Source: a phage | Length of the DNA: 64,000 nucleotides | Assembly (NCBI GenBank): GCA_025823825.1 | Contig: GCA_025823825.1_4720.1 | Direction: 5' to 3' (one strand) | Part shown: positions 6,141 through 17,783 of the stretch, piece after piece | Layout: the number at the start of each line of letters is the position of its first letter | Numbering within the stretch: position 1 is the first letter of the stretch | Notes under the pieces: model-generated | Database searches by the model: none | The model's input: only the letters and a program-made list of their open reading frames with translations | What the model was told of the DNA's origin: nothing | Program-made: the position numbers and the translations under genes

Positions 6141-8621
6141 TTAAACGTCCTCGATAGGCAAAGGTTTAACAATCAAACGATTGAGCGGATTCGATAGACG
6201 CATACTGATAGGCTTATACGCAACATGATTCGTCTCACTTAGAGCCACTGATCTGAAACGACCGTTCAACCGTTTGTAAATCGGTTCTATCCAGAGACCT
6301 CGAAGATCACGTTTACGGAAACGTTGTTCGAACGGTTTGATTGGGGTTACGGTTAACCCACGCAACGACTCTGATGGCAGACGCTCACGAAGGTCGCGTG
6401 GTGCCCGACCTGGGAACGGTGCAAGCCACAAACCATCGAGCGGATTTTTACGGAAACGCAACGAGACAGGATCGCTAATGACTTGTGCCCAATATTGCGT
6501 ACTGAATCGAACGGTTTGGGTGTTCTCGTAACCACTACAATCACACCAGGTTGGTTTCGGAGGCGCTTCCAAACTTTCAACCGCCGATTCACGCCAGTTC
6601 GTCATCGGGTTGTTATCATGTACGAATTTGATAACTTCCGTAGCCTGGTTATCCGTATCATGAACGTTTGCCTGTGCCCAGTCTTCCCACAGTTCTTCAC
6701 TACCACTTACTAAACTCGAACCGAGACGAACGGCGATTTTATTTAGTGGTTTGATTGGGTCACTGTTGATTGTCTGGATAAAATGGATGGTGTAACTGCT
6801 CAATGTCTTAAGCAGCTGCAGCATTCCGTATTGAATATCCTTAAGACTGGTGACATCTTCCAAATCCTGGCCGGTGGCCTTTGTGAAGATATCGAGAGCC
6901 AGAATACCCGCCTCTTCTTGACTGATTGCGTCAAGCTCCCAATCCATCGATAAGAACCATTCCTTGTAAAGCTGTCCAATACCGAAGTCGACACCAACAT
7001 CCATGTAGAAGTTTTCAACGATTGCTTCAGCCATGCCTCGAGCTTGATAATGTTCTTGGAGCTGATACATGAACTGATGGCGACGCCAGCCCTGGTAAAT
7101 CTCGGTAACGGCGCTCAGAAACTCTTCAGTACTGACGACAGCACGCAGCGTCACTTGCTTATCCAAACACCACCAGATCAGTTTATCGGGAATGATAGCA
7201 GGATCGGTAATGCTACGGAGATGGTCGAATGTCGGTAGCGTTAACACCCTGACGTGGTTAGCATGGATCTTAGGTACTTCAATCAGCGTCATGCCCATCG
7301 AATAGTTCAGCAAATACAAGAACAGCTTGTATGCATCTTTCATCGACATCGTCATGGTATCACCCGTCACCGGGTTGGTTGTCGTTAACCGTGACTGATA
7401 CATGCCTATCGCGCTAAGATGAATCCATTCGTTCAGCAGGAAATCATACTTAGGATACAGTTCACTGTCTGTAAGGTCTTCGGCTTCACTTTCCAACACC
7501 TTGGTCGTTAAGGTATTGTTGTCATGCATCGACATCTTCTCTATCGTGCGGTTAAGCTCGGTATAATACTCCGCTTCGTTATCCCGCGCTAGAGGGAACT
7601 GTTGCTGCATCACGGTGGTGACCTTACGTCTTACCGTGCCATTACCGACGATCTCTTGAAGGTTAAGCGGTTTACGCTCCATGTAAACTGCGGGTTTTAA
7701 CGTCTGGGGTATCTCGGAAGCGTCTTGTTTGATCGAGAACGCACCGATTGGAATTCCACGATCGGTTAATACCTTTTGAATGAGCTTATCGTAGTTTTCC
7801 GTTCTGCCCATGTTTCTTTCAACGTAAGCGATGTTACGATAGAACCAGAGCATTTGGGATTCGGTCATGTATCGCTTGAATCGATCGAGACCTTGATGGC
7901 TTGCCAGATAACTCCAGATATGGAAGCTATGGGCATAATGGGTATGACAGTTTTCCCAACGAATACCTTTTATCATCTCAGGTATTTGTGTGAATAGGAT
8001 GGCGTATAGCGCAGGCCAATGAAGCATATCGACGCTCTCATATGCCGGATGTTCCCAGCGTCTGAAGTAATCGTCGATTTCTTGCTGTAAACGTGGAATA
8101 AGATTGGCCTCGCGTGACTCAACCTCTTGTGTATCGTACCAGAGAATCTCATGATTGCGTGCCGCAATTGCTTTCTCGATATCGATGGGGTTAAGGATAC
8201 CCAAGATCAACATACGTTGTTCCGGGTACCGCGCAATTAAACGATTGAAATAATCTCCACCATACGCGTATTCCCTTGCCGTCATGCGATGCCGTAACAT
8301 GTTTTCCTTGGTGAACTCGATCTCTTCGAGCGTATCCAGGGAATTTACGGTCATCATTGTCTGACAAGGATGATACTCGCCAGCGAGATTCATGTAGTAT
8401 AACCACGTGCGTGGGTCGTCCCCGACGGCCATCTGGTAGACTTCGGAAACCTTGAGGTTTAACCGTTCTGCCGTGATGTCGCTTTTAATAATCAGGGTGT
8501 CCGTTAGACGCTGCACGCTTTCCGAATAAAGCTGATAGTCAGTGTTGGACACGATCGGTCCTCCAAGGAGCCAGTGTAAATGAACGATATAAATAAAGGG
8601 CGCGTCGCCCTCGAACGTCAA
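6141..8621 (-). CDS. large hypothetical protein (~800 aa) with C-terminal triple R(F)RK-PLDGLW repeat
   Basis: Long ORF; track start overlaps the start of the divergent gene at 8580, so true start is probably GTG near 8552 (GGAGG 7 nt upstream). Confidence 0.7.
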   Translation of the reverse strand: MTFEGDAPFIYIVHLHWLLGGPIVSNTDYQLYSESVQRLTDTLIIKSDITAERLNLKVSEVYQMAVGDDPRTWLYYMNLAGEYHPCQTMMTVNSLDTLEEIEFTKENMLRHRMTAREYAYGGDYFNRLIARYPEQRMLILGILNPIDIEKAIAARNHEILWYDTQEVESREANLIPRLQQEIDDYFRRWEHPAYESVDMLHWPALYAILFTQIPEMIKGIRWENCHTHYAHSFHIWSYLASHQGLDRFKRYMTESQMLWFYRNIAYVERNMGRTENYDKLIQKVLTDRGIPIGAFSIKQDASEIPQTLKPAVYMERKPLNLQEIVGNGTVRRKVTTVMQQQFPLARDNEAEYYTELNRTIEKMSMHDNNTLTTKVLESEAEDLTDSELYPKYDFLLNEWIHLSAIGMYQSRLTTTNPVTGDTMTMSMKDAYKLFLYLLNYSMGMTLIEVPKIHANHVRVLTLPTFDHLRSITDPAIIPDKLIWWCLDKQVTLRAVVSTEEFLSAVTEIYQGWRRHQFMYQLQEHYQARGMAEAIVENFYMDVGVDFGIGQLYKEWFLSMDWELDAISQEEAGILALDIFTKATGQDLEDVTSLKDIQYGMLQLLKTLSSYTIHFIQTINSDPIKPLNKIAVRLGSSLVSGSEELWEDWAQANVHDTDNQATEVIKFVHDNNPMTNWRESAVESLEAPPKPTWCDCSGYENTQTVRFSTQYWAQVISDPVSLRFRKNPLDGLWLAPFPGRAPRDLRERLPSESLRGLTVTPIKPFEQRFRKRDLRGLWIEPIYKRLNGRFRSVALSETNHVAYKPISMRLSNPLNRLIVKPLPIEDV

Positions 8622-11489
8622 ATGAGCAATAATGACGTTGCGAAGGCACTCATGAACAAATTTGTCGCTCCTGCTCCGCAGTCACGTCTTTATAATACAC
8701 GTGATGCGGAAGGAGCGAACGGTCGTTTCGGGTTAGTTGTTCCCGACCAAATGACGATGAACACGGTTACGCGTGCGACCGCGACAAACATCGAGGATAA
8801 TAAAAACATCCTCGAGTTGTTCCCTGAACTTAAACGCGTGATGCAGATCTATGTTGCCGCGTTGACGAACCCTAACGATCTTAAGACGGTCGAGATGTTT
8901 ATCGACAGCGAAGATTTCCCCGGCAGAGTCGCAGAAATCGTTCAGCCGATGATCGATACCATCGACACGCATTTTAAGAATATCTATAAAATAAAGACGC
9001 TTATCCCTCGTATCATCGAAGACGTCTTCTTTATCAAGGGCAGTTATAACTTCGTTGTTCTGCCGGAAAGCACGCTCGACCGCGCCATTAATGGTAACGG
9101 TCAACTGAAACTTGAAGAATACGGATTTAAAGACAACCATTTTGCAAGTTGGGGGCTTCTAGGTAACGACAGTCGCAAACGCCACGAAAATCAATTACCT
9201 GCGACGGTTTCGATGGAAGATTATTTCTCGGGTGTTAATGAAACCATACCGTACGATCCTGTTGTTCGCATAGACAGCATCAAGTTTACCAATACCCTGC
9301 TTCGCGATAAGGACGGTAAATTCATTGAAGCGAAGATCGATATTCCGGATATGGTTACGGTTGTCGATAACCCAGACATCCTCCGCATGCCTATTCTGCA
9401 TCAACGTCGAGCAGCGACAGCAGTGCAGCGTGCGTTACGCGCAAACACGTTAGGAGGTAGTGGTTTGGTAACGCTGTCAGGCGATCCGACCCTAACCGCT
9501 AACCGACGTGAGCTGTCGCAAGAACAGGTTAACGAGATCTGGAATAAGCTCAACATCCAGCGCCACACCAAGGTATCGCCCGTTTACGCGCTGGCAACCC
9601 CAGATACGCTTGATCGTCAAAGCGTTGGCCATCCTGGCGTGATGCATGTACCACCTGAGGCATTAGAACCCGTACATGCGCCCGGTGATCCTGAGAACCA
9701 TATCGGGTATTTGGTTCAGTTGGATGAGTTTGGTTATCCAGTACGTTTGGTTGAAGATGCGGCGTATTACAAGCAGTTGGAAGGTCGGTTGTCGAAGATC
9801 ACCGCAGATATCGCAGGTACGTCAAGCAACGGCATGGCGAGCGAGATGATTGGTGCAGCCAAGAACATGATCCAAGGTACGTCATGTAATCAGGTAGACA
9901 TGTCGGCCTTCGTATCATCGTACGAATCGCTGATGCAACGTTACATTGTCGAACGTATCGTTAACGGTTATCTTGGCAGTGCGGTGGAGATCGGTGCGAC
10001 ATCGTCGTTTTATCTGTCGATGCTTGCTCGTAGCCTCGCTCACAAGCAGACCCGTGTTTTGTTTATTCCTCGAGAGATGGTGACTTACATCGCCTATGAA
10101 TACAACAAATACGGTATCGGTCGTTCGCTGCTTGAAAGTACGAAGATGATCTCATCGCAACGAGCCATGCTCATGGTTCAAGAACTGATGGCAAAAATCA
10201 AAAGTTCGTTGAACTATACGACGCTAAGCGTAATGCTTGAAGACACCGACAGAAACCCGGTCGATACCGTCGAACAAGCGCTGCATAGTTTCGCTCGTGT
10301 CTACCAGTCTGGTTTCCCGTTGGGTGAAACTAACCCGATGGATATCATCAACGCGTACGAACGAAGCTCGATTCGATTGAAGGTTGAGGGGAATAACCCA
10401 CGCTTCCCGAAATTGAATACAGACGTCAGTGTTGAGCAGCGTAACTATCAGTCTCCTGATAATGAGCTGATGGATCGTTACCGTCGTGACCATTTCATGG
10501 GCTTGGGTGTGTCTCCGGAGATTATCGATACTTCCTACCAATCTGAATTCGCAGCTTCTGTGATTACAGCTAACGCGATGCAAGAGAAACAGTTCACGGT
10601 TTGTCGTGAGGTGATCACGAATGGGTTATCGGACCACATCAAGAAATATACGGCATACAGTCCCGTGTTGTTGACGTCGTTACGAAACACGGTTCGTGCG
10701 AACATGTCTAAGCTTTCCCAGGCACAATTGAAGCAGCTTTTTGGTAGCGATTTCGAAAACGGTGTTATCCGTAACGTTAACGCCTATCAGGAGATTGACG
10801 ACCAATCAGCAACAATGGATCTGGATTACACTAAACCAGAAGTCCAGGAAGTTATTGCCGATGCTTATGTGTCCATGTTCTTAAACAGCCTGCGTGTGCG
10901 TTTACCGGATAGCAATGCTCGTCGCCTTGAAGATCAGGTACGTGAATATAATCAGTACAAGGAAGCGATTACTGCGCAACTTGATGATTATTTAACGCCC
11001 GATTACGTCATGGGTCTGGGTGGGGTTGATGAAACAACGCTGCAGATGATCCGCGCATGCATTATTGGTACCGCGATGCGTACGTGGGCAAAAGAGAACA
11101 ACTTCAATCAGGAGCTGGCTGATCTCTTCAGTCTTGACGATAAGAAGAATGCCGTGCAAGATTGGAAACGTATGTCCATGGAACATATTGAAGTCATGGG
11201 TAAATGCATGGGTGATTTTGCATTGTATATTCAGAATCTGACGAAGAAGATTGAAGAGAAGATGGGAGCTCAAGCACAGGACGGTAGCGTTTCATCTGAT
11301 GGTTCGTGGTCATCCGATTCAAGTAGCGATACCGGTTCTTCTGATGACTTCGGTGGCGGTGACGATTTCGGAGATACCGATTTCGATACCGAAACGATGG
11401 AGGAAACCTCAACAGAAGAAACAACCACATCTGAGGATACGACGACCGACACAACGTCAGAAGACGATACTTCAGGTGACATTGTCTAA
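8580..11489 (+). CDS. large hypothetical virion-type protein (969 aa) with acidic Ser/Thr/Asp-rich C-terminal tail
   Basis: Long ORF, AAGGAG 9 nt upstream of ATG; C-terminus SSDGSWSSDSSSDTGSSDDFGGGDDFGDTDFDTE... Confidence 0.75.
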   Translation: MNDINKGRVALERQMSNNDVAKALMNKFVAPAPQSRLYNTRDAEGANGRFGLVVPDQMTMNTVTRATATNIEDNKNILELFPELKRVMQIYVAALTNPNDLKTVEMFIDSEDFPGRVAEIVQPMIDTIDTHFKNIYKIKTLIPRIIEDVFFIKGSYNFVVLPESTLDRAINGNGQLKLEEYGFKDNHFASWGLLGNDSRKRHENQLPATVSMEDYFSGVNETIPYDPVVRIDSIKFTNTLLRDKDGKFIEAKIDIPDMVTVVDNPDILRMPILHQRRAATAVQRALRANTLGGSGLVTLSGDPTLTANRRELSQEQVNEIWNKLNIQRHTKVSPVYALATPDTLDRQSVGHPGVMHVPPEALEPVHAPGDPENHIGYLVQLDEFGYPVRLVEDAAYYKQLEGRLSKITADIAGTSSNGMASEMIGAAKNMIQGTSCNQVDMSAFVSSYESLMQRYIVERIVNGYLGSAVEIGATSSFYLSMLARSLAHKQTRVLFIPREMVTYIAYEYNKYGIGRSLLESTKMISSQRAMLMVQELMAKIKSSLNYTTLSVMLEDTDRNPVDTVEQALHSFARVYQSGFPLGETNPMDIINAYERSSIRLKVEGNNPRFPKLNTDVSVEQRNYQSPDNELMDRYRRDHFMGLGVSPEIIDTSYQSEFAASVITANAMQEKQFTVCREVITNGLSDHIKKYTAYSPVLLTSLRNTVRANMSKLSQAQLKQLFGSDFENGVIRNVNAYQEIDDQSATMDLDYTKPEVQEVIADAYVSMFLNSLRVRLPDSNARRLEDQVREYNQYKEAITAQLDDYLTPDYVMGLGGVDETTLQMIRACIIGTAMRTWAKENNFNQELADLFSLDDKKNAVQDWKRMSMEHIEVMGKCMGDFALYIQNLTKKIEEKMGAQAQDGSVSSDGSWSSDSSSDTGSSDDFGGGDDFGDTDFDTETMEETSTEETTTSEDTTTDTTSEDDTSGDIV

Positions 11490-11574: not shown

Positions 11575-11850
11575 TTATTTCGAGGTTAACCACGATTCAA
11601 TTATGGTGAGTTTGCTTCTCAGTACGCGCCAACTAGGGTGTGGTGGGATCACAGCGCCATTGTCGATTACGGTTAGCTGAACCTGGTACTTCTGTTGCAT
11701 ACGCGCTACCGTGTCGCTTATCGAGAGGAAAAGCTGGTAACGTTCATATGCCGTCAGTTCACTGTCCTGTTGAACTGCGTTGGCTGCTAACGTAATTTCG
11801 CGTAAGTCCTTTGCATCCACAGAGACGGTAATGAGTTTATATTGACTCAT
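11575..11850 (-). CDS. small hypothetical protein (91 aa)
   Basis: ORF between hairpin element and the next gene; no recognisable motifs. Confidence 0.5.
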   Translation of the reverse strand: MSQYKLITVSVDAKDLREITLAANAVQQDSELTAYERYQLFLSISDTVARMQQKYQVQLTVIDNGAVIPPHPSWRVLRSKLTIIESWLTSK

Positions 11851-11911
11851 ACGGTTTCCTTATCAACTAGGGTATTGCAAATACAATACCCACCGTCGGA
11901 CGATAAGTTAA

Positions 11912-14470
11912 TTACTGCTCTTCACGTTCCAGCAGATACTCGGAAGCGGTAATACCGTTTACCGTACGTACTGCTTTCAGACGAGTATCATCGCTCAGAA
12001 TTACAGTAACAGATTGCAGACCTTTTACTTTGGTTTCGAAGGTCTTGAACACCTGATCCAGCATACGAGCAATGCTTGGGTTGGTTGCAGCCGATGCGTG
12101 AGTGTAACCGCTCTGATTCAGCTTCAGAATCTTGGCGTTGGTCGGTACGCGAACAACAACATGTGGGCGCATCGCGAATACGCTGTGATTGAACCAGTAA
12201 GCGTCGTTACTATCTTCGTCGGTAACGATGTCTGGATTAACACGCATATCCTCGACAGCCGCATCCGCCAAACGACGTTCGATTTCATCGGCGTCCAGAG
12301 AGCCATCTTTCTCCAGTTCTGCACGATACTCACTCATGGCAACCAGATGACGTTCACGATTCGCTGCAGATTTTTCGTGAGCGGCTTTCAGGTAGTCATG
12401 CATGTTGTACAGTTCAGCCATGGAAAGACGAATGTTCCACTGACCTTCGCCATCACGATTGCAGTAGAGACACTTCAGCATGTTGACCCAGGTGTAGTAG
12501 CAATTGGCGAATTCATCTTCAATGAACTTCTGGTCCATTTTAAGATCGTGAATCAGCCAACCGGACAGTTCTCCGATATCATCAACGAAGCTAGAGATGG
12601 TGGTTTCAGAGAAGTTCTTCGGTACGATACGTTTGATCAGCTTATTGACGTCTTTGGTCATGCTATCGTTCAGGAAATGCCAGATACGCAGAGGAATGAC
12701 ATCTCGATACTGTTGCATGATCTGACGATAAGCTTTGATATCGTCGCTACGACCTTTATCAATAGACAACGCATCCAGGAATTCATGGATTGCATCCAGC
12801 TCTTTGTCGGTATAGGTTCCCAGATAGGAATTGACGGTGGCCAGGAATGCTAATGCGTCGTTTTGGTTGACGTCGGTGTTGGTCTGCTGAATGATCGCCA
12901 CTGCAGCTTTAGTTTCAGCATCCTCAACGCTTGACGCTGCGATCGCGTCGGTGACGGTAAACAGTTTCATTTCGCGCTGTTCACCGACAACGATTGGCTC
13001 ACGCTGAACCGGCTTGTTAAGACTAACGCGAACAACTTCTGCTTGCGCGATACGATCCAGTTTTGCCATTTCCTGCTCTGCCATACGACGAGCGGTTGGA
13101 TCTGATTCAAGTTCGATGTATTCCACTTCTTCCTCCGTGAGGGATGTAATGTCAACAATGGTTTCATGAAGAATTCCGTTTTCGTCGATACGTGCCCGAC
13201 GAGCGAAGTGCCTGAAGTCATACAACGTCGGCCAACGACAATTAGGCGCATAGTCTTTGGCTTTCAGACGCATCTGCATAAATTCATCATGTTGAACAAC
13301 ACGACCGTAACGCTTAGCATCTTCGGTCGCATCAATTGGATTAACGGTCTTTGTTGCCGTAGCGGAACGAGCCGTACGAACCGGTTCCGGTTTCACCTGT
13401 GCCGGTTCAGGTTGAACGGGTTTCTGCTGTCCAGCCTTAACATGCCATTCTGGCTCTTCGTACTGTTCAGCAAATTGCTCAGCCGCTGCAAAGATATCGT
13501 TGATACCACCAATATCTCCTTCAGGATTTGTCGAGTAAATCCGTGGTTGCGGTGCCTCGTAACGCGGCGCTGTAGCAGCAGGTGCCTCATCAACGTTATG
13601 ATCGTCATCACCAACATCATACAAACGGTTGAACGCACAATCCTTCGAATCAATGTACGATGGTGTTTGTGGTTGGACAACCGTAGGCCGAGGTTGTGCG
13701 CCGTATCCTGGTGTTGTTGGAGCCATACCACGCATAACTGCCGGGTTAGGTTGGTATTGTGGTTGCGGGTAGGTTCCACCATACGTGGCGTACGCAGGCT
13801 GTTGCGGTTGACCGTATCCACCACCAACCATCGCACTTGCTTGCGGCCCACGATAAGTCATCCCCATCTGCATCACCTGCTGCTTCAAACCGCGTGACTT
13901 CTGAGCGATTTGCGCTAGGCTTCCGCTTTTATTCAGCTGCGTGTACTTATTCGCGGCTTCCGGGTTAATGCGTGATAATTCGATCGCGCGATAATATTCC
14001 GGGTACTGATTAGGTTCAAAGAGCCACGTTACAAGATGATACAGCGCAACTGTGCTCACAGCAGCAGAGACGATCTGGTCGTCGGACGCGTTCTGTGGCA
14101 TCGGGTTGATGTAAGAGAACACGTTCCAACAACAGTCTTCAACAAGCGATTCCATCATCATATCGTTATTGGTATAACGTGCGACGAACTCGGTTTGTAT
14201 TTTGTCTTGCTGAGCGAAGTCTTTCAGGACATTAAAGATGGCTTGACGGATTTTGACGATCGTCGCTTCTTGGGTGATGAAGTTATAGTTCTGCTGATAT
14301 GAGGGTTGTTGGTATTGTGGTGGTTGATAGGCGTTATTCGGGTATGCGCCGTACGGCGATTGCTGATACTGTTGCTGACGAACCTGTTCAGCCGCATGAT
14401 TAATCGTGCTCGTATAAGGGTTTTCGCTATAGCCCATTTGCTGATACATGTTGTTACTGCCATTATACAT
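11912..14470 (-). CDS. hypothetical protein (852 aa) with Q/Y/P/G-rich low-complexity regions
   Basis: Long ORF; N-terminus ...QQQYQQSPYGAYPNNAYQPPQYQQPSYQQNY... and internal GGGYGQPQQPAYATYGGTYPQPQYQPNP... Confidence 0.75.
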   Translation of the reverse strand: MYNGSNNMYQQMGYSENPYTSTINHAAEQVRQQQYQQSPYGAYPNNAYQPPQYQQPSYQQNYNFITQEATIVKIRQAIFNVLKDFAQQDKIQTEFVARYTNNDMMMESLVEDCCWNVFSYINPMPQNASDDQIVSAAVSTVALYHLVTWLFEPNQYPEYYRAIELSRINPEAANKYTQLNKSGSLAQIAQKSRGLKQQVMQMGMTYRGPQASAMVGGGYGQPQQPAYATYGGTYPQPQYQPNPAVMRGMAPTTPGYGAQPRPTVVQPQTPSYIDSKDCAFNRLYDVGDDDHNVDEAPAATAPRYEAPQPRIYSTNPEGDIGGINDIFAAAEQFAEQYEEPEWHVKAGQQKPVQPEPAQVKPEPVRTARSATATKTVNPIDATEDAKRYGRVVQHDEFMQMRLKAKDYAPNCRWPTLYDFRHFARRARIDENGILHETIVDITSLTEEEVEYIELESDPTARRMAEQEMAKLDRIAQAEVVRVSLNKPVQREPIVVGEQREMKLFTVTDAIAASSVEDAETKAAVAIIQQTNTDVNQNDALAFLATVNSYLGTYTDKELDAIHEFLDALSIDKGRSDDIKAYRQIMQQYRDVIPLRIWHFLNDSMTKDVNKLIKRIVPKNFSETTISSFVDDIGELSGWLIHDLKMDQKFIEDEFANCYYTWVNMLKCLYCNRDGEGQWNIRLSMAELYNMHDYLKAAHEKSAANRERHLVAMSEYRAELEKDGSLDADEIERRLADAAVEDMRVNPDIVTDEDSNDAYWFNHSVFAMRPHVVVRVPTNAKILKLNQSGYTHASAATNPSIARMLDQVFKTFETKVKGLQSVTVILSDDTRLKAVRTVNGITASEYLLEREEQ

Positions 14471-14504
14471 TTCTTACGATCCTTTTTATTTATTCGGTTA
14501 TGTG

Positions 14505-16304
14505 TCAATCGATTATGTCACGATCGTTAATTTCTACAATTTCTTCATCGAATCGACCGACGTCTTTCTTCAATCCTGCATTGGTTGCTGCAACGTCATT
14601 TGCAATTTGTGGGGTAATGATTAACCGACCACGTTCGTCGATAGGTGCGTACATACTGAACTTCTGACGTCCGGTTGGTTCGGAGTGTGGAAGATTCAGA
14701 TAGCTTGCACAGAACGGGATGGAACCACTAACCAAACGACTCTCGTCAGCCAATGCAGCACCGCCTGCGTTTTGGCTCTGGAGAACAACATGCGTGCTCA
14801 CTTTGAACAGCATGCAATCACCAGGTGACTGAATCGATGTTGCCACTTTCTCACGTTTATCACGATTGCTCTGGATATTGAGAATCGCTTCCGTTGCAAC
14901 TTGATTTCGCAACGCCTTCTGTACATCGCGATTGGTCATCTCTTTACGGTTGTTCTGTCGTTTACCACGTTCTGTGGTTTTAAGATGGAACCCCAGTTTA
15001 AAGATGCTCTTACGCACATCCTCCATGACATATTCCAACACCATCAATTCCTTACCGAACATCGTCGTGGTATCAACACGACTCATTTCGATAGTGACAT
15101 TGTCAATCAGATACGCCATAAATTCGTAGAAGTCGTCGCAAGGAATATTTTCCTGTTTGAACTTCTTCTGCTGAATCTCGTCAACGTAAAGATCGAGACT
15201 GTCGATGTGGTGGTTTACATCACGCAACAAACGTGCATCCGCGTTGTTGTTATTAAAGATAATCAAACCGAGTAATGTACGCCAATGGTCTGGCGCATTC
15301 GCGAACTCCTCAACCGGATAGTCTTCCGGAAAACGATCGTAATAACGGTCGATGAGATACAAGAATGCACCGACAAGGCCAAGAACAATACGTTCCGTGC
15401 CTCCACGTCTTACAGCAATTTGAATATCAGGATGTTTGTAACGTACAGCGCTAGCGCTACGGCTTTTACCGCTTTTGCTGATACTAAAACCTTTAGGAAT
15501 AACCCCCATGGTGCGATAGATTACCCATTGGTCACGCGGAAAATCACGTTCAGCAAGGTTCCGTCCGGTTACGGCTTCGACACCTGCAAAACGTCGGAAA
15601 CACTCACCCACACCGTACTTCGCAAAGAGATAGTGACCCAGTGTGGTTACGCTGGTGTGGTTGATGTTGTCACCGTTCACTTTACTTTGTTTGGTAAGAT
15701 GATAGATTTGTGACCAGGGTAATGACAGGTAATGACGATAATCGATACCGGTCGGTGTATCATTGCTCAGGAACTGATACGGCGTACGTTTAACCGTGAT
15801 TTTATCACGCGGAAGCATGATGAACGCCATGTCTTTCGTGTAACTGATTACGGGGTCAGCGAGTACCGCACTGAGAATGAAGTTCGCACCACGTAGACGC
15901 ATTTTACCACCCTGACCTACCGCGGGTAATAGGAGAGGATGTCGGATAATGCAGTAGTCCTTTCCTGGTTCACGACGGTCACCTGATTCCATCGCGCCGT
16001 ACCAGCGGAATTCCAGCATCACCATAAACACATCGGAAGGCGCAAGGTCGAAGGTCAGCTTACCGCTATCCTTCCCTTTGGTTTTCTTTCCTCCGCTTAA
16101 GTAGTGGAACTGTTCGCGGGCCATACAACGACGCAGGCCATGATACACCAGATCCTTAGGTAAACTATCTTTGCTGTTCCGCCAAAGACGATCAACATAG
16201 GACTCAACATCTTGCATCTTATCGACGACGATGTTGCGTGCTATCTTCTCGTTCATCTTCGGTGCAAGCTCAGCGACAGCTTTGCAGAATCTAGGATCCA
16301 TCAC
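14505..16304 (-). CDS. hypothetical protein (599 aa)
   Basis: Long ORF; no diagnostic catalytic motif recognised. Confidence 0.7.
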   Translation of the reverse strand: MMDPRFCKAVAELAPKMNEKIARNIVVDKMQDVESYVDRLWRNSKDSLPKDLVYHGLRRCMAREQFHYLSGGKKTKGKDSGKLTFDLAPSDVFMVMLEFRWYGAMESGDRREPGKDYCIIRHPLLLPAVGQGGKMRLRGANFILSAVLADPVISYTKDMAFIMLPRDKITVKRTPYQFLSNDTPTGIDYRHYLSLPWSQIYHLTKQSKVNGDNINHTSVTTLGHYLFAKYGVGECFRRFAGVEAVTGRNLAERDFPRDQWVIYRTMGVIPKGFSISKSGKSRSASAVRYKHPDIQIAVRRGGTERIVLGLVGAFLYLIDRYYDRFPEDYPVEEFANAPDHWRTLLGLIIFNNNNADARLLRDVNHHIDSLDLYVDEIQQKKFKQENIPCDDFYEFMAYLIDNVTIEMSRVDTTTMFGKELMVLEYVMEDVRKSIFKLGFHLKTTERGKRQNNRKEMTNRDVQKALRNQVATEAILNIQSNRDKREKVATSIQSPGDCMLFKVSTHVVLQSQNAGGAALADESRLVSGSIPFCASYLNLPHSEPTGRQKFSMYAPIDERGRLIITPQIANDVAATNAGLKKDVGRFDEEIVEINDRDIID

Positions 16305-16340
16305 ACACTCCTTTCAGAAAGTTGCTTAAGCAGATTAAAG

Positions 16341-17783
16341 TTACTTTTTCGATGACGCCTTCTCAAGAATCTTGAAAAAGGTCATACCTATACCGACAAC
16401 AGCCGCGGTTATGCTTGCAGCGGCTTTCCAAACATCGACGTTACGTTGACGTCGCGCTTCTTCCGCTTCACGTTGTCTTTTTGCCTCTTCATCACGTCGA
16501 CGTATCTCAGCAGCAAACTCGTCGTGCTTACGTTTGGATTCTTCGTCTCGACGACGAAGTTCAGCGACGAATTCTTCATGTTTGCGTTTAGCCTCGTCAT
16601 CACGACGTTTTAAATCAGCTTGATAATCTTCATGTATTTGTCTACGTAGATCATCTTGACGTTTCATTTCGGCTTGGTGTTGTTCCATCCTACGTTTTTG
16701 TTCGTCTTTAAGCTGATCGAGTTCGGCTTTATGTTGTTCATCACGCAGCTTTGCATCAGCGCGATGCGCCTCATGCATCTGTGCGATAACTGCCTTGTGT
16801 TCATCCGCCATACGTCGCATTTCAGCCATCACCCCTTTAAGGGTTTCTTCTGATGCCTTACGTTCGTAGCTACGCTGGTCGAAATCATTTTTGTAGGCTT
16901 CTTTTTGGATGGGGTCGCGCCAATGCAATGCCGACTCACGTGTCGGAAAAACATTGTACTTCCACATCTCTTTTTCCAAATCTTCGACCGGTACGAAGAT
17001 GGAGTCATTATTCCCGAAGGTAACCAACATACCTGGCGCGCCTGCTCCATTCGTTGGTTTTATTTCGAACGCTTTCCCCAACACGTTAACCCATAAGCTA
17101 TACGGATTATGAAAGTCGGGCGGCGTCCAATGGATAGTGAGTTGTGTTCCGAGAATCCGGAAACCCTCTGTTTTTCCCGTCAAGCTCCGCGCGCACGTTG
17201 CGATGTAGGGGTGATCAATCCCTTTCGTAACGTGGTCTGCGCTTTTGTATTCTCCTTTAACTTTTACGATTGCCACGTTGATTTGCGCGACATAAGCAGG
17301 TTGATTAAAGTTCAACGTGTTGAGGTCAATTTGACATATTTCATCCAGCGTATCGTACCAGTCTTGCTGGTCTAATAGACGCGGCATTTTCTCTGTGTTA
17401 ACAATACGACGGATATGCGGTTTCCTTATCGCATAACCTGTGCCGTTTTTAACACGGAGTATATCCCGACGTCTACCCGCGTAGACGAAGTTTCTGAATG
17501 CACCATTCGCATTAGATACGTCATGGCTGTCAACTATTACAGGACTACGAAATTTTGAACGTCGTACGATCCTGAATGTATTGCCGTCCTCAACCCTACC
17601 AGGAATGTACTGGAACATATTGTCGGAGGTGATAACCAACACGGTATGGCCAGATTCGTTAATACATGCCCATCCTAATTCCAGGTCATATAACGGTTCA
17701 GCATAACCGTCAATGCGATAAGCGTGCGTACCATCCCACGGTTCGAACGCGGTATCACATATTGGCATGGAGGGCATCGTCAA
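16341..17783 (-). CDS. hypothetical protein with E/R/K-rich charged helical repeats and C-terminal hydrophobic anchor
   Basis: ORF; probable ATG start at 17777 with GGAGG upstream; repeats RRRDEE(A/S)KRKH(E/D)EF(V/A)AE(L/I); C-terminal AAASITAAVVGIGMTFF. Confidence 0.7.
   Translation of the reverse strand: MTMPSMPICDTAFEPWDGTHAYRIDGYAEPLYDLELGWACINESGHTVLVITSDNMFQYIPGRVEDGNTFRIVRRSKFRSPVIVDSHDVSNANGAFRNFVYAGRRRDILRVKNGTGYAIRKPHIRRIVNTEKMPRLLDQQDWYDTLDEICQIDLNTLNFNQPAYVAQINVAIVKVKGEYKSADHVTKGIDHPYIATCARSLTGKTEGFRILGTQLTIHWTPPDFHNPYSLWVNVLGKAFEIKPTNGAGAPGMLVTFGNNDSIFVPVEDLEKEMWKYNVFPTRESALHWRDPIQKEAYKNDFDQRSYERKASEETLKGVMAEMRRMADEHKAVIAQMHEAHRADAKLRDEQHKAELDQLKDEQKRRMEQHQAEMKRQDDLRRQIHEDYQADLKRRDDEAKRKHEEFVAELRRRDEESKRKHDEFAAEIRRRDEEAKRQREAEEARRQRNVDVWKAAASITAAVVGIGMTFFKILEKASSKK

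Follow-up and report, generated by a model that had tools for sequence, protein, structure and literature searches.

JADA (Muralidharan et al., Mol Cell 2026; PMC12931631) is an essential, early and abundant protein of the jumbo phages known as chimalliviruses. In that report the JADA gene is always found downstream of a gene that encodes a non-virion RNA polymerase (nvRNAP) subunit, the C-terminal domain (C-domain) of the protein adopts a novel fold and forms a rigid homodimer, and after purification JADA is a discrete, soluble dimer by mass photometry and cryo-electron microscopy. A JADA-mScarlet fusion is diffuse before infection and forms foci at early phage infection (EPI) vesicles once the cells are infected, the cytoplasmic fusion being recruited to the vesicle from outside. 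The EPI vesicle is where the injected genome is first transcribed, and a role of JADA in early transcription was suggested. EPI localisation, activation of Avs5 immunity and essentiality are known only for the JADA proteins of phages Pa36 and PhiKZ. Here, a 64,000-nucleotide stretch of phage DNA (hereafter the window; contig GCA_025823825.1_4720.1 of assembly GCA_025823825.1) was analysed around one gene, located at 11912-14470 on the minus strand, which starts with ATG and encodes a protein of 852 residues. Our data indicate that this protein is very probably the JADA ortholog of the lineage of phage Goslar, and that it carries stretches rich in glutamine, tyrosine, proline and glycine.

Antisense knock-down of PhiKZ124, the PhiKZ JADA gene, resulted in fewer plaques, a lower level of ChmA and strongly perturbed phage transcription (PMC12571901). 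PhiKZ gp124 is reported to co-purify with complexes of host DnaX or FtsZ (Van den Bossche 2014, cited in PMC11849849), an observation that was set aside because a sticky, abundant protein could do so non-specifically. Another early protein of the same phage family, the RNA-binding, Whirly-domain protein ChmC (PhiPA3 gp61 / Goslar gp176), offers a precedent for a functional disordered region, since its Asn/Gly-rich disordered tail is required for the formation of condensates with RNA and for localisation to a phage compartment. ChmC differs from JADA in its unrelated fold, in having a short C-terminal disordered tail with an acidic Ser/Asp/Glu part, and in its site of action, which is the nuclear shell rather than the EPI vesicle.

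Identity of the Goslar-lineage protein

Identity of the window to Escherichia phage vB_EcoM_Goslar, a nucleus-forming jumbo phage of 237 kb, is 98.7%, and the large phage assumed in an initial annotation of this stretch is thereby borne out. The protein is the counterpart of Goslar gp038, to which it is 98.8% identical with 10 residue differences, and which is annotated as a 'hypothetical protein'. No significant family was found for it in Pfam or PHROGs, and a tblastn search of 50,697 phage records matched Goslar alone. A word-indexed protein search gave four close relatives, the same type of search with a C-domain profile matched two Serratia phage proteins only, and an exhaustive HMMER search added one further relative (P0005), which is 35% identical. 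The closest database cluster (P0001, 98% identical) has 496 member sequences in ENA with two contigs recorded, a number of members which suggests that Goslar-like phages recur often in public assemblies.

The lead to JADA was given by gene order. An open reading frame (ORF) of 687-981 residues occupies the same place in 12 annotated chimalliviruses, examples of which are PhiKZ gp124, RAY gp004, Eowyn gp146 and 201phi2-1 gp204. As is the case for JADA genes, the gene studied here is the next one downstream of the nvRNAP subunit gene, from which it is separated by 34 nt and with which it shares the strand, and this arrangement was found in the 12 annotated phages and in 70 of 72 loci from IMG/VR.

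A profile of the C-terminal region matched Protein Data Bank (PDB) entry 9RP3, 'Gp316/JADA'. This first match was circular, PhiKZ gp124 being part of the query profile, and the relationship was therefore re-tested by profile-profile comparisons. When the Goslar-clade profile was compared by hhalign with a C-domain profile of nine orthologs, in which PhiKZ gp124 was the first sequence and the Goslar clade was left out, the probability of the match was 98.6% (E 5e-16), with residues 408-849 of the protein corresponding to residues 371-720 of PhiKZ gp124. PhiKZ gp124 in turn matches 9rp3_A over all of its residues 1-721 (1666 bits). For the N-terminal domain (N-domain), comparison with a profile of about 80 non-Goslar orthologs gave an hhalign probability of 93.1% (E 3.2e-7), and the probability was 8.5% with 9 sequences only. 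An hmmsearch of the PDB with the Goslar-clade profile did not reach 9rp3. Foldseek ranked 9rp3_A and 9rp3_B third and fourth of 350,542 chains with non-significant E-values of 0.5-0.6; this ranking is only suggestive because the AlphaFold2 model, built from an alignment of 8 sequences, is poor overall, with a predicted local distance difference test score (pLDDT) of 45 and a predicted template modelling score of 0.26.

In terms of layout, the protein has the small N-domain, long disordered linker and large C-domain of JADA. Its features, which include two low-complexity stretches termed LC1 and LC2, are as follows:

14480..14484, minus strand: ribosome-binding site AAGGA, 9 nt before the ATG, read directly in the sequence
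14282..14470, minus strand: LC1, N-terminal Gln/Tyr/Asn/Pro-rich tail, residues 1-63 (composition, Tyr spacing, pLDDT)
13865..14281, minus strand: helical N-domain, residues ~64-202 (AlphaFold2 helices, hhalign profile match)
13655..13864, minus strand: LC2, start of the inter-domain linker, rich in Pro/Gly/Gln/Tyr, residues 203-272 (composition, pLDDT)
13286..13654, minus strand: rest of the disordered linker, acidic and Pro-rich, residues 273-395 (pLDDT <50)
11915..13285, minus strand: C-domain, residues 396-852, homolog of the C-terminal dimer domain of JADA, PDB 9RP3 (hhalign)
12191..12424, minus strand: charged helical insertion of ~80 residues in the C-domain, specific to the Goslar clade, residues ~683-760 (hhalign, MAFFT, AlphaFold2)

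The helices of the N-domain are predicted across residues 57-207 with a pLDDT of 60-75. The whole linker comprises about 190 residues (203-395), and its acidic part contains one predicted short helix (residues 321-336) followed by the motif EEPEW; residues E331, P340 and W342 are invariant in an alignment that includes the two Serratia phage orthologs. The C-terminal region is predicted to be mixed alpha/beta in a model whose confidence is low throughout. The charged insertion, which is lacking in PhiKZ-type JADA, is unaligned in hhalign, appears as an insertion in the MAFFT alignment and is modelled as a long helix (residues 676-744). A Cas9_C_2 match at residues 731-791 (18.6 bits against a cutoff of 27) was judged spurious because it is located in this charged helical insertion.

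The profile matches of both domains, the position after the nvRNAP gene and the common layout together make us highly confident that the protein is the Goslar-lineage ortholog of JADA (PhiKZ gp124 / Pa36 gp316); it belongs to a family that was described recently and does not represent a new kind of system. It shares with PhiKZ gp124-type JADA the homologous domains in the same order, the gene position and strand, and early, high expression. It differs in that sequence identity is only ~14-16%, at which plain searches with hidden Markov models (HMMs) do not connect the two. The Goslar clade also adds the 63-residue Tyr/Gln-rich N-terminal tail and the charged C-domain insertion, and its linker is Q/Y/P/G-rich as against G/Q/M/P-rich in PhiKZ.

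Composition of the disordered stretches in the protein and across the family

The enrichment in Gln, Tyr, Pro and Gly that the initial annotation had reported for the first ~60 residues and for an internal segment is confirmed, is located at residues 1-63 and 203-272, and is well above chance. LC1 contains 14 Gln, 11 Tyr, 9 Asn and 6 Pro with only 3 charged residues (Gln+Asn 37%, proline 10%), and its 11 tyrosines are mostly spaced 5 residues apart. LC2 contains 13 Pro, 11 Gly, 10 Gln and 8 Tyr, likewise with 3 charged residues, in 70 residues (proline 19%, glycine 16%, Gln+Asn 16%). Measured in segments of 40 residues, the fraction of Q+Y+P+G+N is 0.68-0.75 in the two stretches and 0.07-0.4 in the rest of the protein. 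The best segment in the protein reached 0.75, while the runner-up among the 47 ORFs of at least 150 residues in the window reached 0.50. A stricter prion-like test asks for a 40-residue segment in which QNGPYMSW make up at least 65% and charged residues at most 10%; this protein alone passed it among the 41 ORFs of at least 200 residues. The initial annotation was right in that the composition is unusual for this phage.

The AAGGA ribosome-binding site supports the translation of the LC1 tail, and no tandem repeat was found by Tandem Repeats Finder in the DNA under LC1 or LC2. The disorder prediction that had been proposed as a check agrees with the composition: pLDDT is below 50 at residues 1-56 and 202-380 and falls to 22-30 in LC2, which fits disorder of both LC1 and the linker. 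The two stretches combine an uncharged polar composition with spaced aromatic residues, as prion-like and phase-separating domains do, and neither has the Gln/Asn-rich, proline-poor composition that is compatible with amyloid.

The aromatic residues of these stretches are better conserved than their surroundings. In the five closest relatives, which extend down to 79% identity, 18 of the 19 aromatic positions in LC1 and LC2 are conserved, compared with 29 of 47 positions for 'other' residues (Fisher p = 0.007); against all non-aromatic residues the difference has p = 0.04. All eight aromatic residues of LC2 are invariant in these relatives. LC1 is 11 residues longer in P0003 and P0004, and the extra sequence consists of further Tyr-containing units.

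The composition of the linker was then followed across the family. Eighty IMG/VR loci were collected by anchoring on the nvRNAP gene, the C-domain alignment being without a conserved stretch. An ORF of at least 400 residues starting 13-503 nt downstream of the nvRNAP gene is present in 72 of the 80 loci, and 70 of these 72 ORFs match the C-domain HMM. The resulting ortholog set, drawn from IMG/VR and the annotated phages, comprised 87 sequences that formed 51 clusters at 50% identity. A prion-like linker segment was found in 35 of the 51 clusters and an RG/RS-rich one (R at least 20%, R+G+S at least 55%) in 11, together 46 of 51. Among 412 other ORFs of at least 300 residues in the same loci, 3 were prion-like and 2 RG/RS-rich, a background that represents any protein rather than any long disordered region; the 3 prion-like ORFs are apparently JADA orthologs overlooked by the ORF-calling rule.

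The linkers are of the Q/Y/P/G type in Goslar and Eowyn, Q/M/P in RAY, G/Q/M/P in PhiKZ and G/N/W in RTH11, while some uncultivated phages have Q/N/G repeats studded with GW or GF, and classic RGG/RS repeats are seen in PCH45, FLC6, KpLz-2_45 and Haymo. RG-type linkers are interspersed with prion-like ones in a rough neighbour-joining tree built from the adjacent nvRNAP subunit, where they occupy at least four separate clades. N-terminal tails analogous to LC1 are present in RAY-like phages and several other clades. A family-wide short linear motif in the linker was not found beyond clade-level conservation.

Two of the IMG/VR loci, L038 and L019, have JADA linkers made of repeats, one with GW repeats (…GWGQQQVQQNNGWGNQQQNGWNNQSSGWGQ…) and the other with GF/GY repeats (…GGFNQGGFNQGGGYNQGGYGYNQGG…), which recall the GW- and FG-type repeats of eukaryotic proteins.

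The low-complexity domains of FUS and hnRNP proteins are either uncharged and rich in Gln, Gly, Ser and Pro with regularly spaced tyrosines, or made of Arg-Gly repeats. JADA linkers resemble them in that Tyr-rich and RGG types both occur and are joined to an oligomerising folded domain. The proteins are non-homologous, LC2 is much richer in proline, and the analogy is one of composition only; an RNA-binding domain was not identified in JADA. In the part of the JADA paper (PMC12931631) that was consulted the linker region is termed 'disordered or flexible', and no mention of low complexity, phase separation or condensates was found there. The family-wide retention of a sticker-type linker composition appears to be new.

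The early gene island

The neighbouring genes that form one block with the JADA gene are as follows:

16341..17783, minus strand: gp040 (PhiKZ gp122 ortholog), first gene of the early island (ORF listing; core-genome table; co-regulated with gp038 in Goslar RNA sequencing)
14505..16304, minus strand: gp039, nvRNAP beta-like subunit (PhiKZ gp123 ortholog; phrog_2943 'polymerase', E 7e-120; core-genome table)
11575..11850, minus strand: gp037, 91-residue ORF downstream of the JADA gene, last gene of the early island (ORF listing; RNA sequencing pattern like that of gp038)

These four co-directional genes, gp037-gp040 (window 11575-17783, minus strand), are separated by gaps of 34-61 nt, gp039 ending 34 nt before the JADA gene, and they are flanked by the genes for the portal gp036 (PhiKZ gp129 ortholog) and the major capsid protein gp041. 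The gp039 sequence has tblastn matches in 235 phage records. In published RNA sequencing of Goslar (the phage 98.7% identical to the window), in which infection was arrested at the EPI-vesicle stage by knock-down of ChmA, gp037-gp040 changed by +0.7 to +1.2 log2 units and gp038 itself by +0.8 to +1.2, while the portal gene fell by 5.6 to 6.8 and the capsid gene by 4.0 to 4.4 log2 units, which for the two flanking genes means a decrease of 16- to 100-fold. The read count of gp038 was the highest within gp001-050. The contrast between gp037-gp040 and the flanking portal and capsid genes places the JADA gene in a small island of early genes within a late structural block, and the Goslar data show for gp038 the early, high expression at the EPI-vesicle stage that characterises JADA. 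A scan for sigma-70 promoters found fewer sites than in shuffled sequence, a result that is irrelevant for a phage using its own RNA polymerases.

Residues ~355-480 of gp040 contain a charged repeat, RRRDEE.KRKH.EF.AE, in three copies, followed by a hydrophobic helix of ~20 residues at the extreme C-terminus. Of 12 gp040 orthologs from other genera, most likewise close with a moderately hydrophobic segment (Kyte-Doolittle mean over 19 residues 1.2-2.0), which is usually C-terminal. Judged from its sequence, the C-terminal helix of gp040 looks like a tail anchor, and gp040 could hold JADA or the nvRNAP at the lipid EPI vesicle. Transcription is perturbed alike by knock-down of PhiKZ122 and of PhiKZ124 (PMC12571901). 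A second low-complexity region lies nearby in the portal gp036 (8580-11489, plus strand), whose last ~70 residues form an acidic Ser/Thr/Asp/Glu-rich tail (…SSDGSWSSDSSSDTGSSDDFGGGDDFGDTDFDTETMEETSTEETTTSEDTTTDTTSEDDTSGDIV) of the opposite, electronegative type.

Possible role of the linkers and competing explanations

The reading that we place first, and hold tentatively, is that the disordered stretches act as sticky, multivalent tethers that help to concentrate the JADA dimer at an early transcription-translation hub. The spaced tyrosines in a Gln/Pro/Gly/Asn background would act as weak 'stickers', and since dimerisation of the C-domain would bring four sticky segments together, the dimer would be multivalent. 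Such dimers would cluster at the surface of the EPI vesicle, probably along with nascent mRNA of the phage and further early factors, and early transcription and translation would be aided by this clustering up to the time when the phage nucleus has been built. RNA is a likely partner, because linkers of the RGG/RS type are found at the same position in other clades. The compartment role put forward in the initial annotation is supported in so far as a PhiKZ-like member of the family is seen in foci at the EPI vesicle (PMC12931631); the rest of it is argued here from the precedent of ChmC and from comparative composition.

Several observations weigh against this reading. JADA-mScarlet is diffuse in uninfected cells and the purified protein is a clean dimer (PMC12931631), so that JADA does not condense spontaneously under those conditions, and the phase separation suggested by the initial annotation is to that extent not supported. 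In the same report the C-domain alone suffices to activate the Sir2 NADase of Avs5. LC1 is clade-specific, being missing in the 35%-identical P0005 and in PhiKZ, and the linker evolves fast, with 8 of the 10 differences from Goslar gp038 falling in disordered parts. Five of the 51 clusters are under both composition thresholds and carry weaker versions, the enrichment over background may partly reflect disorder as such, and the AlphaFold2 model is poor (pLDDT 45). Poor conservation in orthologs had been named as a finding that would speak against a role of these regions; this holds for the sequence and for LC1, but a sticker-type linker is kept in 46 of the 51 clusters.

Next in order is a passive entropic tether, which we consider a serious possibility. 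Length and flexibility would here suffice for the N-domain and the dimeric C-domain to reach separate partners, and the extreme composition would have arisen secondarily by slippage and drift, the region being unconstrained. The poor sequence conservation of the linker, the variation of its length by insertions and deletions, the wide differences in composition between clades (Q/Y/P, Q/M/P, G/N/W, RGG) and the restriction of LC1 to one clade are all as expected of such a tether, as are the diffuse signal without infection and the clean dimer in vitro, and the authors of the JADA paper speak only of a 'disordered or flexible' region (PMC12931631). However, drift alone should not confine 46 of 51 clusters to two classes, each of which corresponds to a known sticker grammar, with acidic and A/E/K-rich linkers almost absent among the clusters. 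The tyrosines are also conserved significantly better than the surrounding residues, and the 11-residue expansion in P0003 and P0004 adds Tyr-containing units, not random sequence.

We consider it unlikely that gp038 is a packaged and injected virion protein, whose disorder would allow storage in the capsid and threading through the tail with the DNA, and which would act at the EPI vesicle from the first minute. The protein was detected with 26 peptides in Goslar virions purified on caesium chloride, by liquid chromatography-tandem mass spectrometry (bioRxiv 10.64898/2026.04.21.720040, Table S4). The estimate from that study of 17-39 gp038 copies per virion compares with 11-26 for the 12-copy portal and is more than 100-fold above that of the co-transcribed, non-virion nvRNAP subunit gp039 (0.09-0.22 copies), and the gene is located between the capsid and portal genes. 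However, it is transcribed in the early, vesicle-stage class, unlike all the flanking structural genes. The records of PhiKZ gp124 and 201phi2-1 gp204 carry no virion flag, whereas their neighbours are flagged, so that Goslar gp038 differs from PhiKZ gp124 in this respect, and in Churi the ortholog is entered as a non-structural protein. The vesicle recruits cytoplasmic JADA-mScarlet from outside (PMC12931631), and the presence in virion preparations could be due simply to co-purification of a sticky protein of very high abundance. The detection is unexpected for an early, 'non-structural' protein and may reflect either true packaging or co-purification. The role in virion assembly that the initial annotation had also proposed does not fit the early, vesicle-stage transcription of gp038, even though the protein is found in purified virions.

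A stronger version of clustering seems to us similarly improbable. In this version the linkers, which are polar repeats studded with Tyr, Trp or Phe in some clades and RGG repeats in others, would build up a selective phase, nucleoporin-like or RNA-granule-like, where the EPI vesicle faces the cytoplasm. JADA could in that case be anchored through the tail-anchor-like helix of the co-transcribed gp040/gp122, and phage mRNA may exit through the phase while ribosomes are recruited and host nucleases and sensors are excluded. If true, this would be a condensate layer that couples a viral membrane compartment to translation in a bacterium, and it would also explain why Avs5 immunity watches JADA.

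Proline strongly disfavours amyloid, as the composition of prion domains shows. An amyloid or prion-like, self-templating assembly, for which the 37% Gln+Asn and the few charged residues of LC1 might speak and which the initial annotation had raised, is therefore very improbable, as proline makes up 10% of LC1 and 19% of LC2 (with 16% glycine in LC2), many orthologs carry at the same position RG/RS-rich linkers, which do not form Q/N amyloid, and purified JADA is soluble and dimeric (PMC12931631).

The assignment to JADA provides a functional name for Goslar gp038, hitherto a hypothetical protein, in a genetically tractable E. coli system. JADA is essential, counts among the earliest, most abundant proteins of chimalliviruses and is sensed by Avs5, and the conserved grammar of its linkers is a modest new lead to the function of this family.

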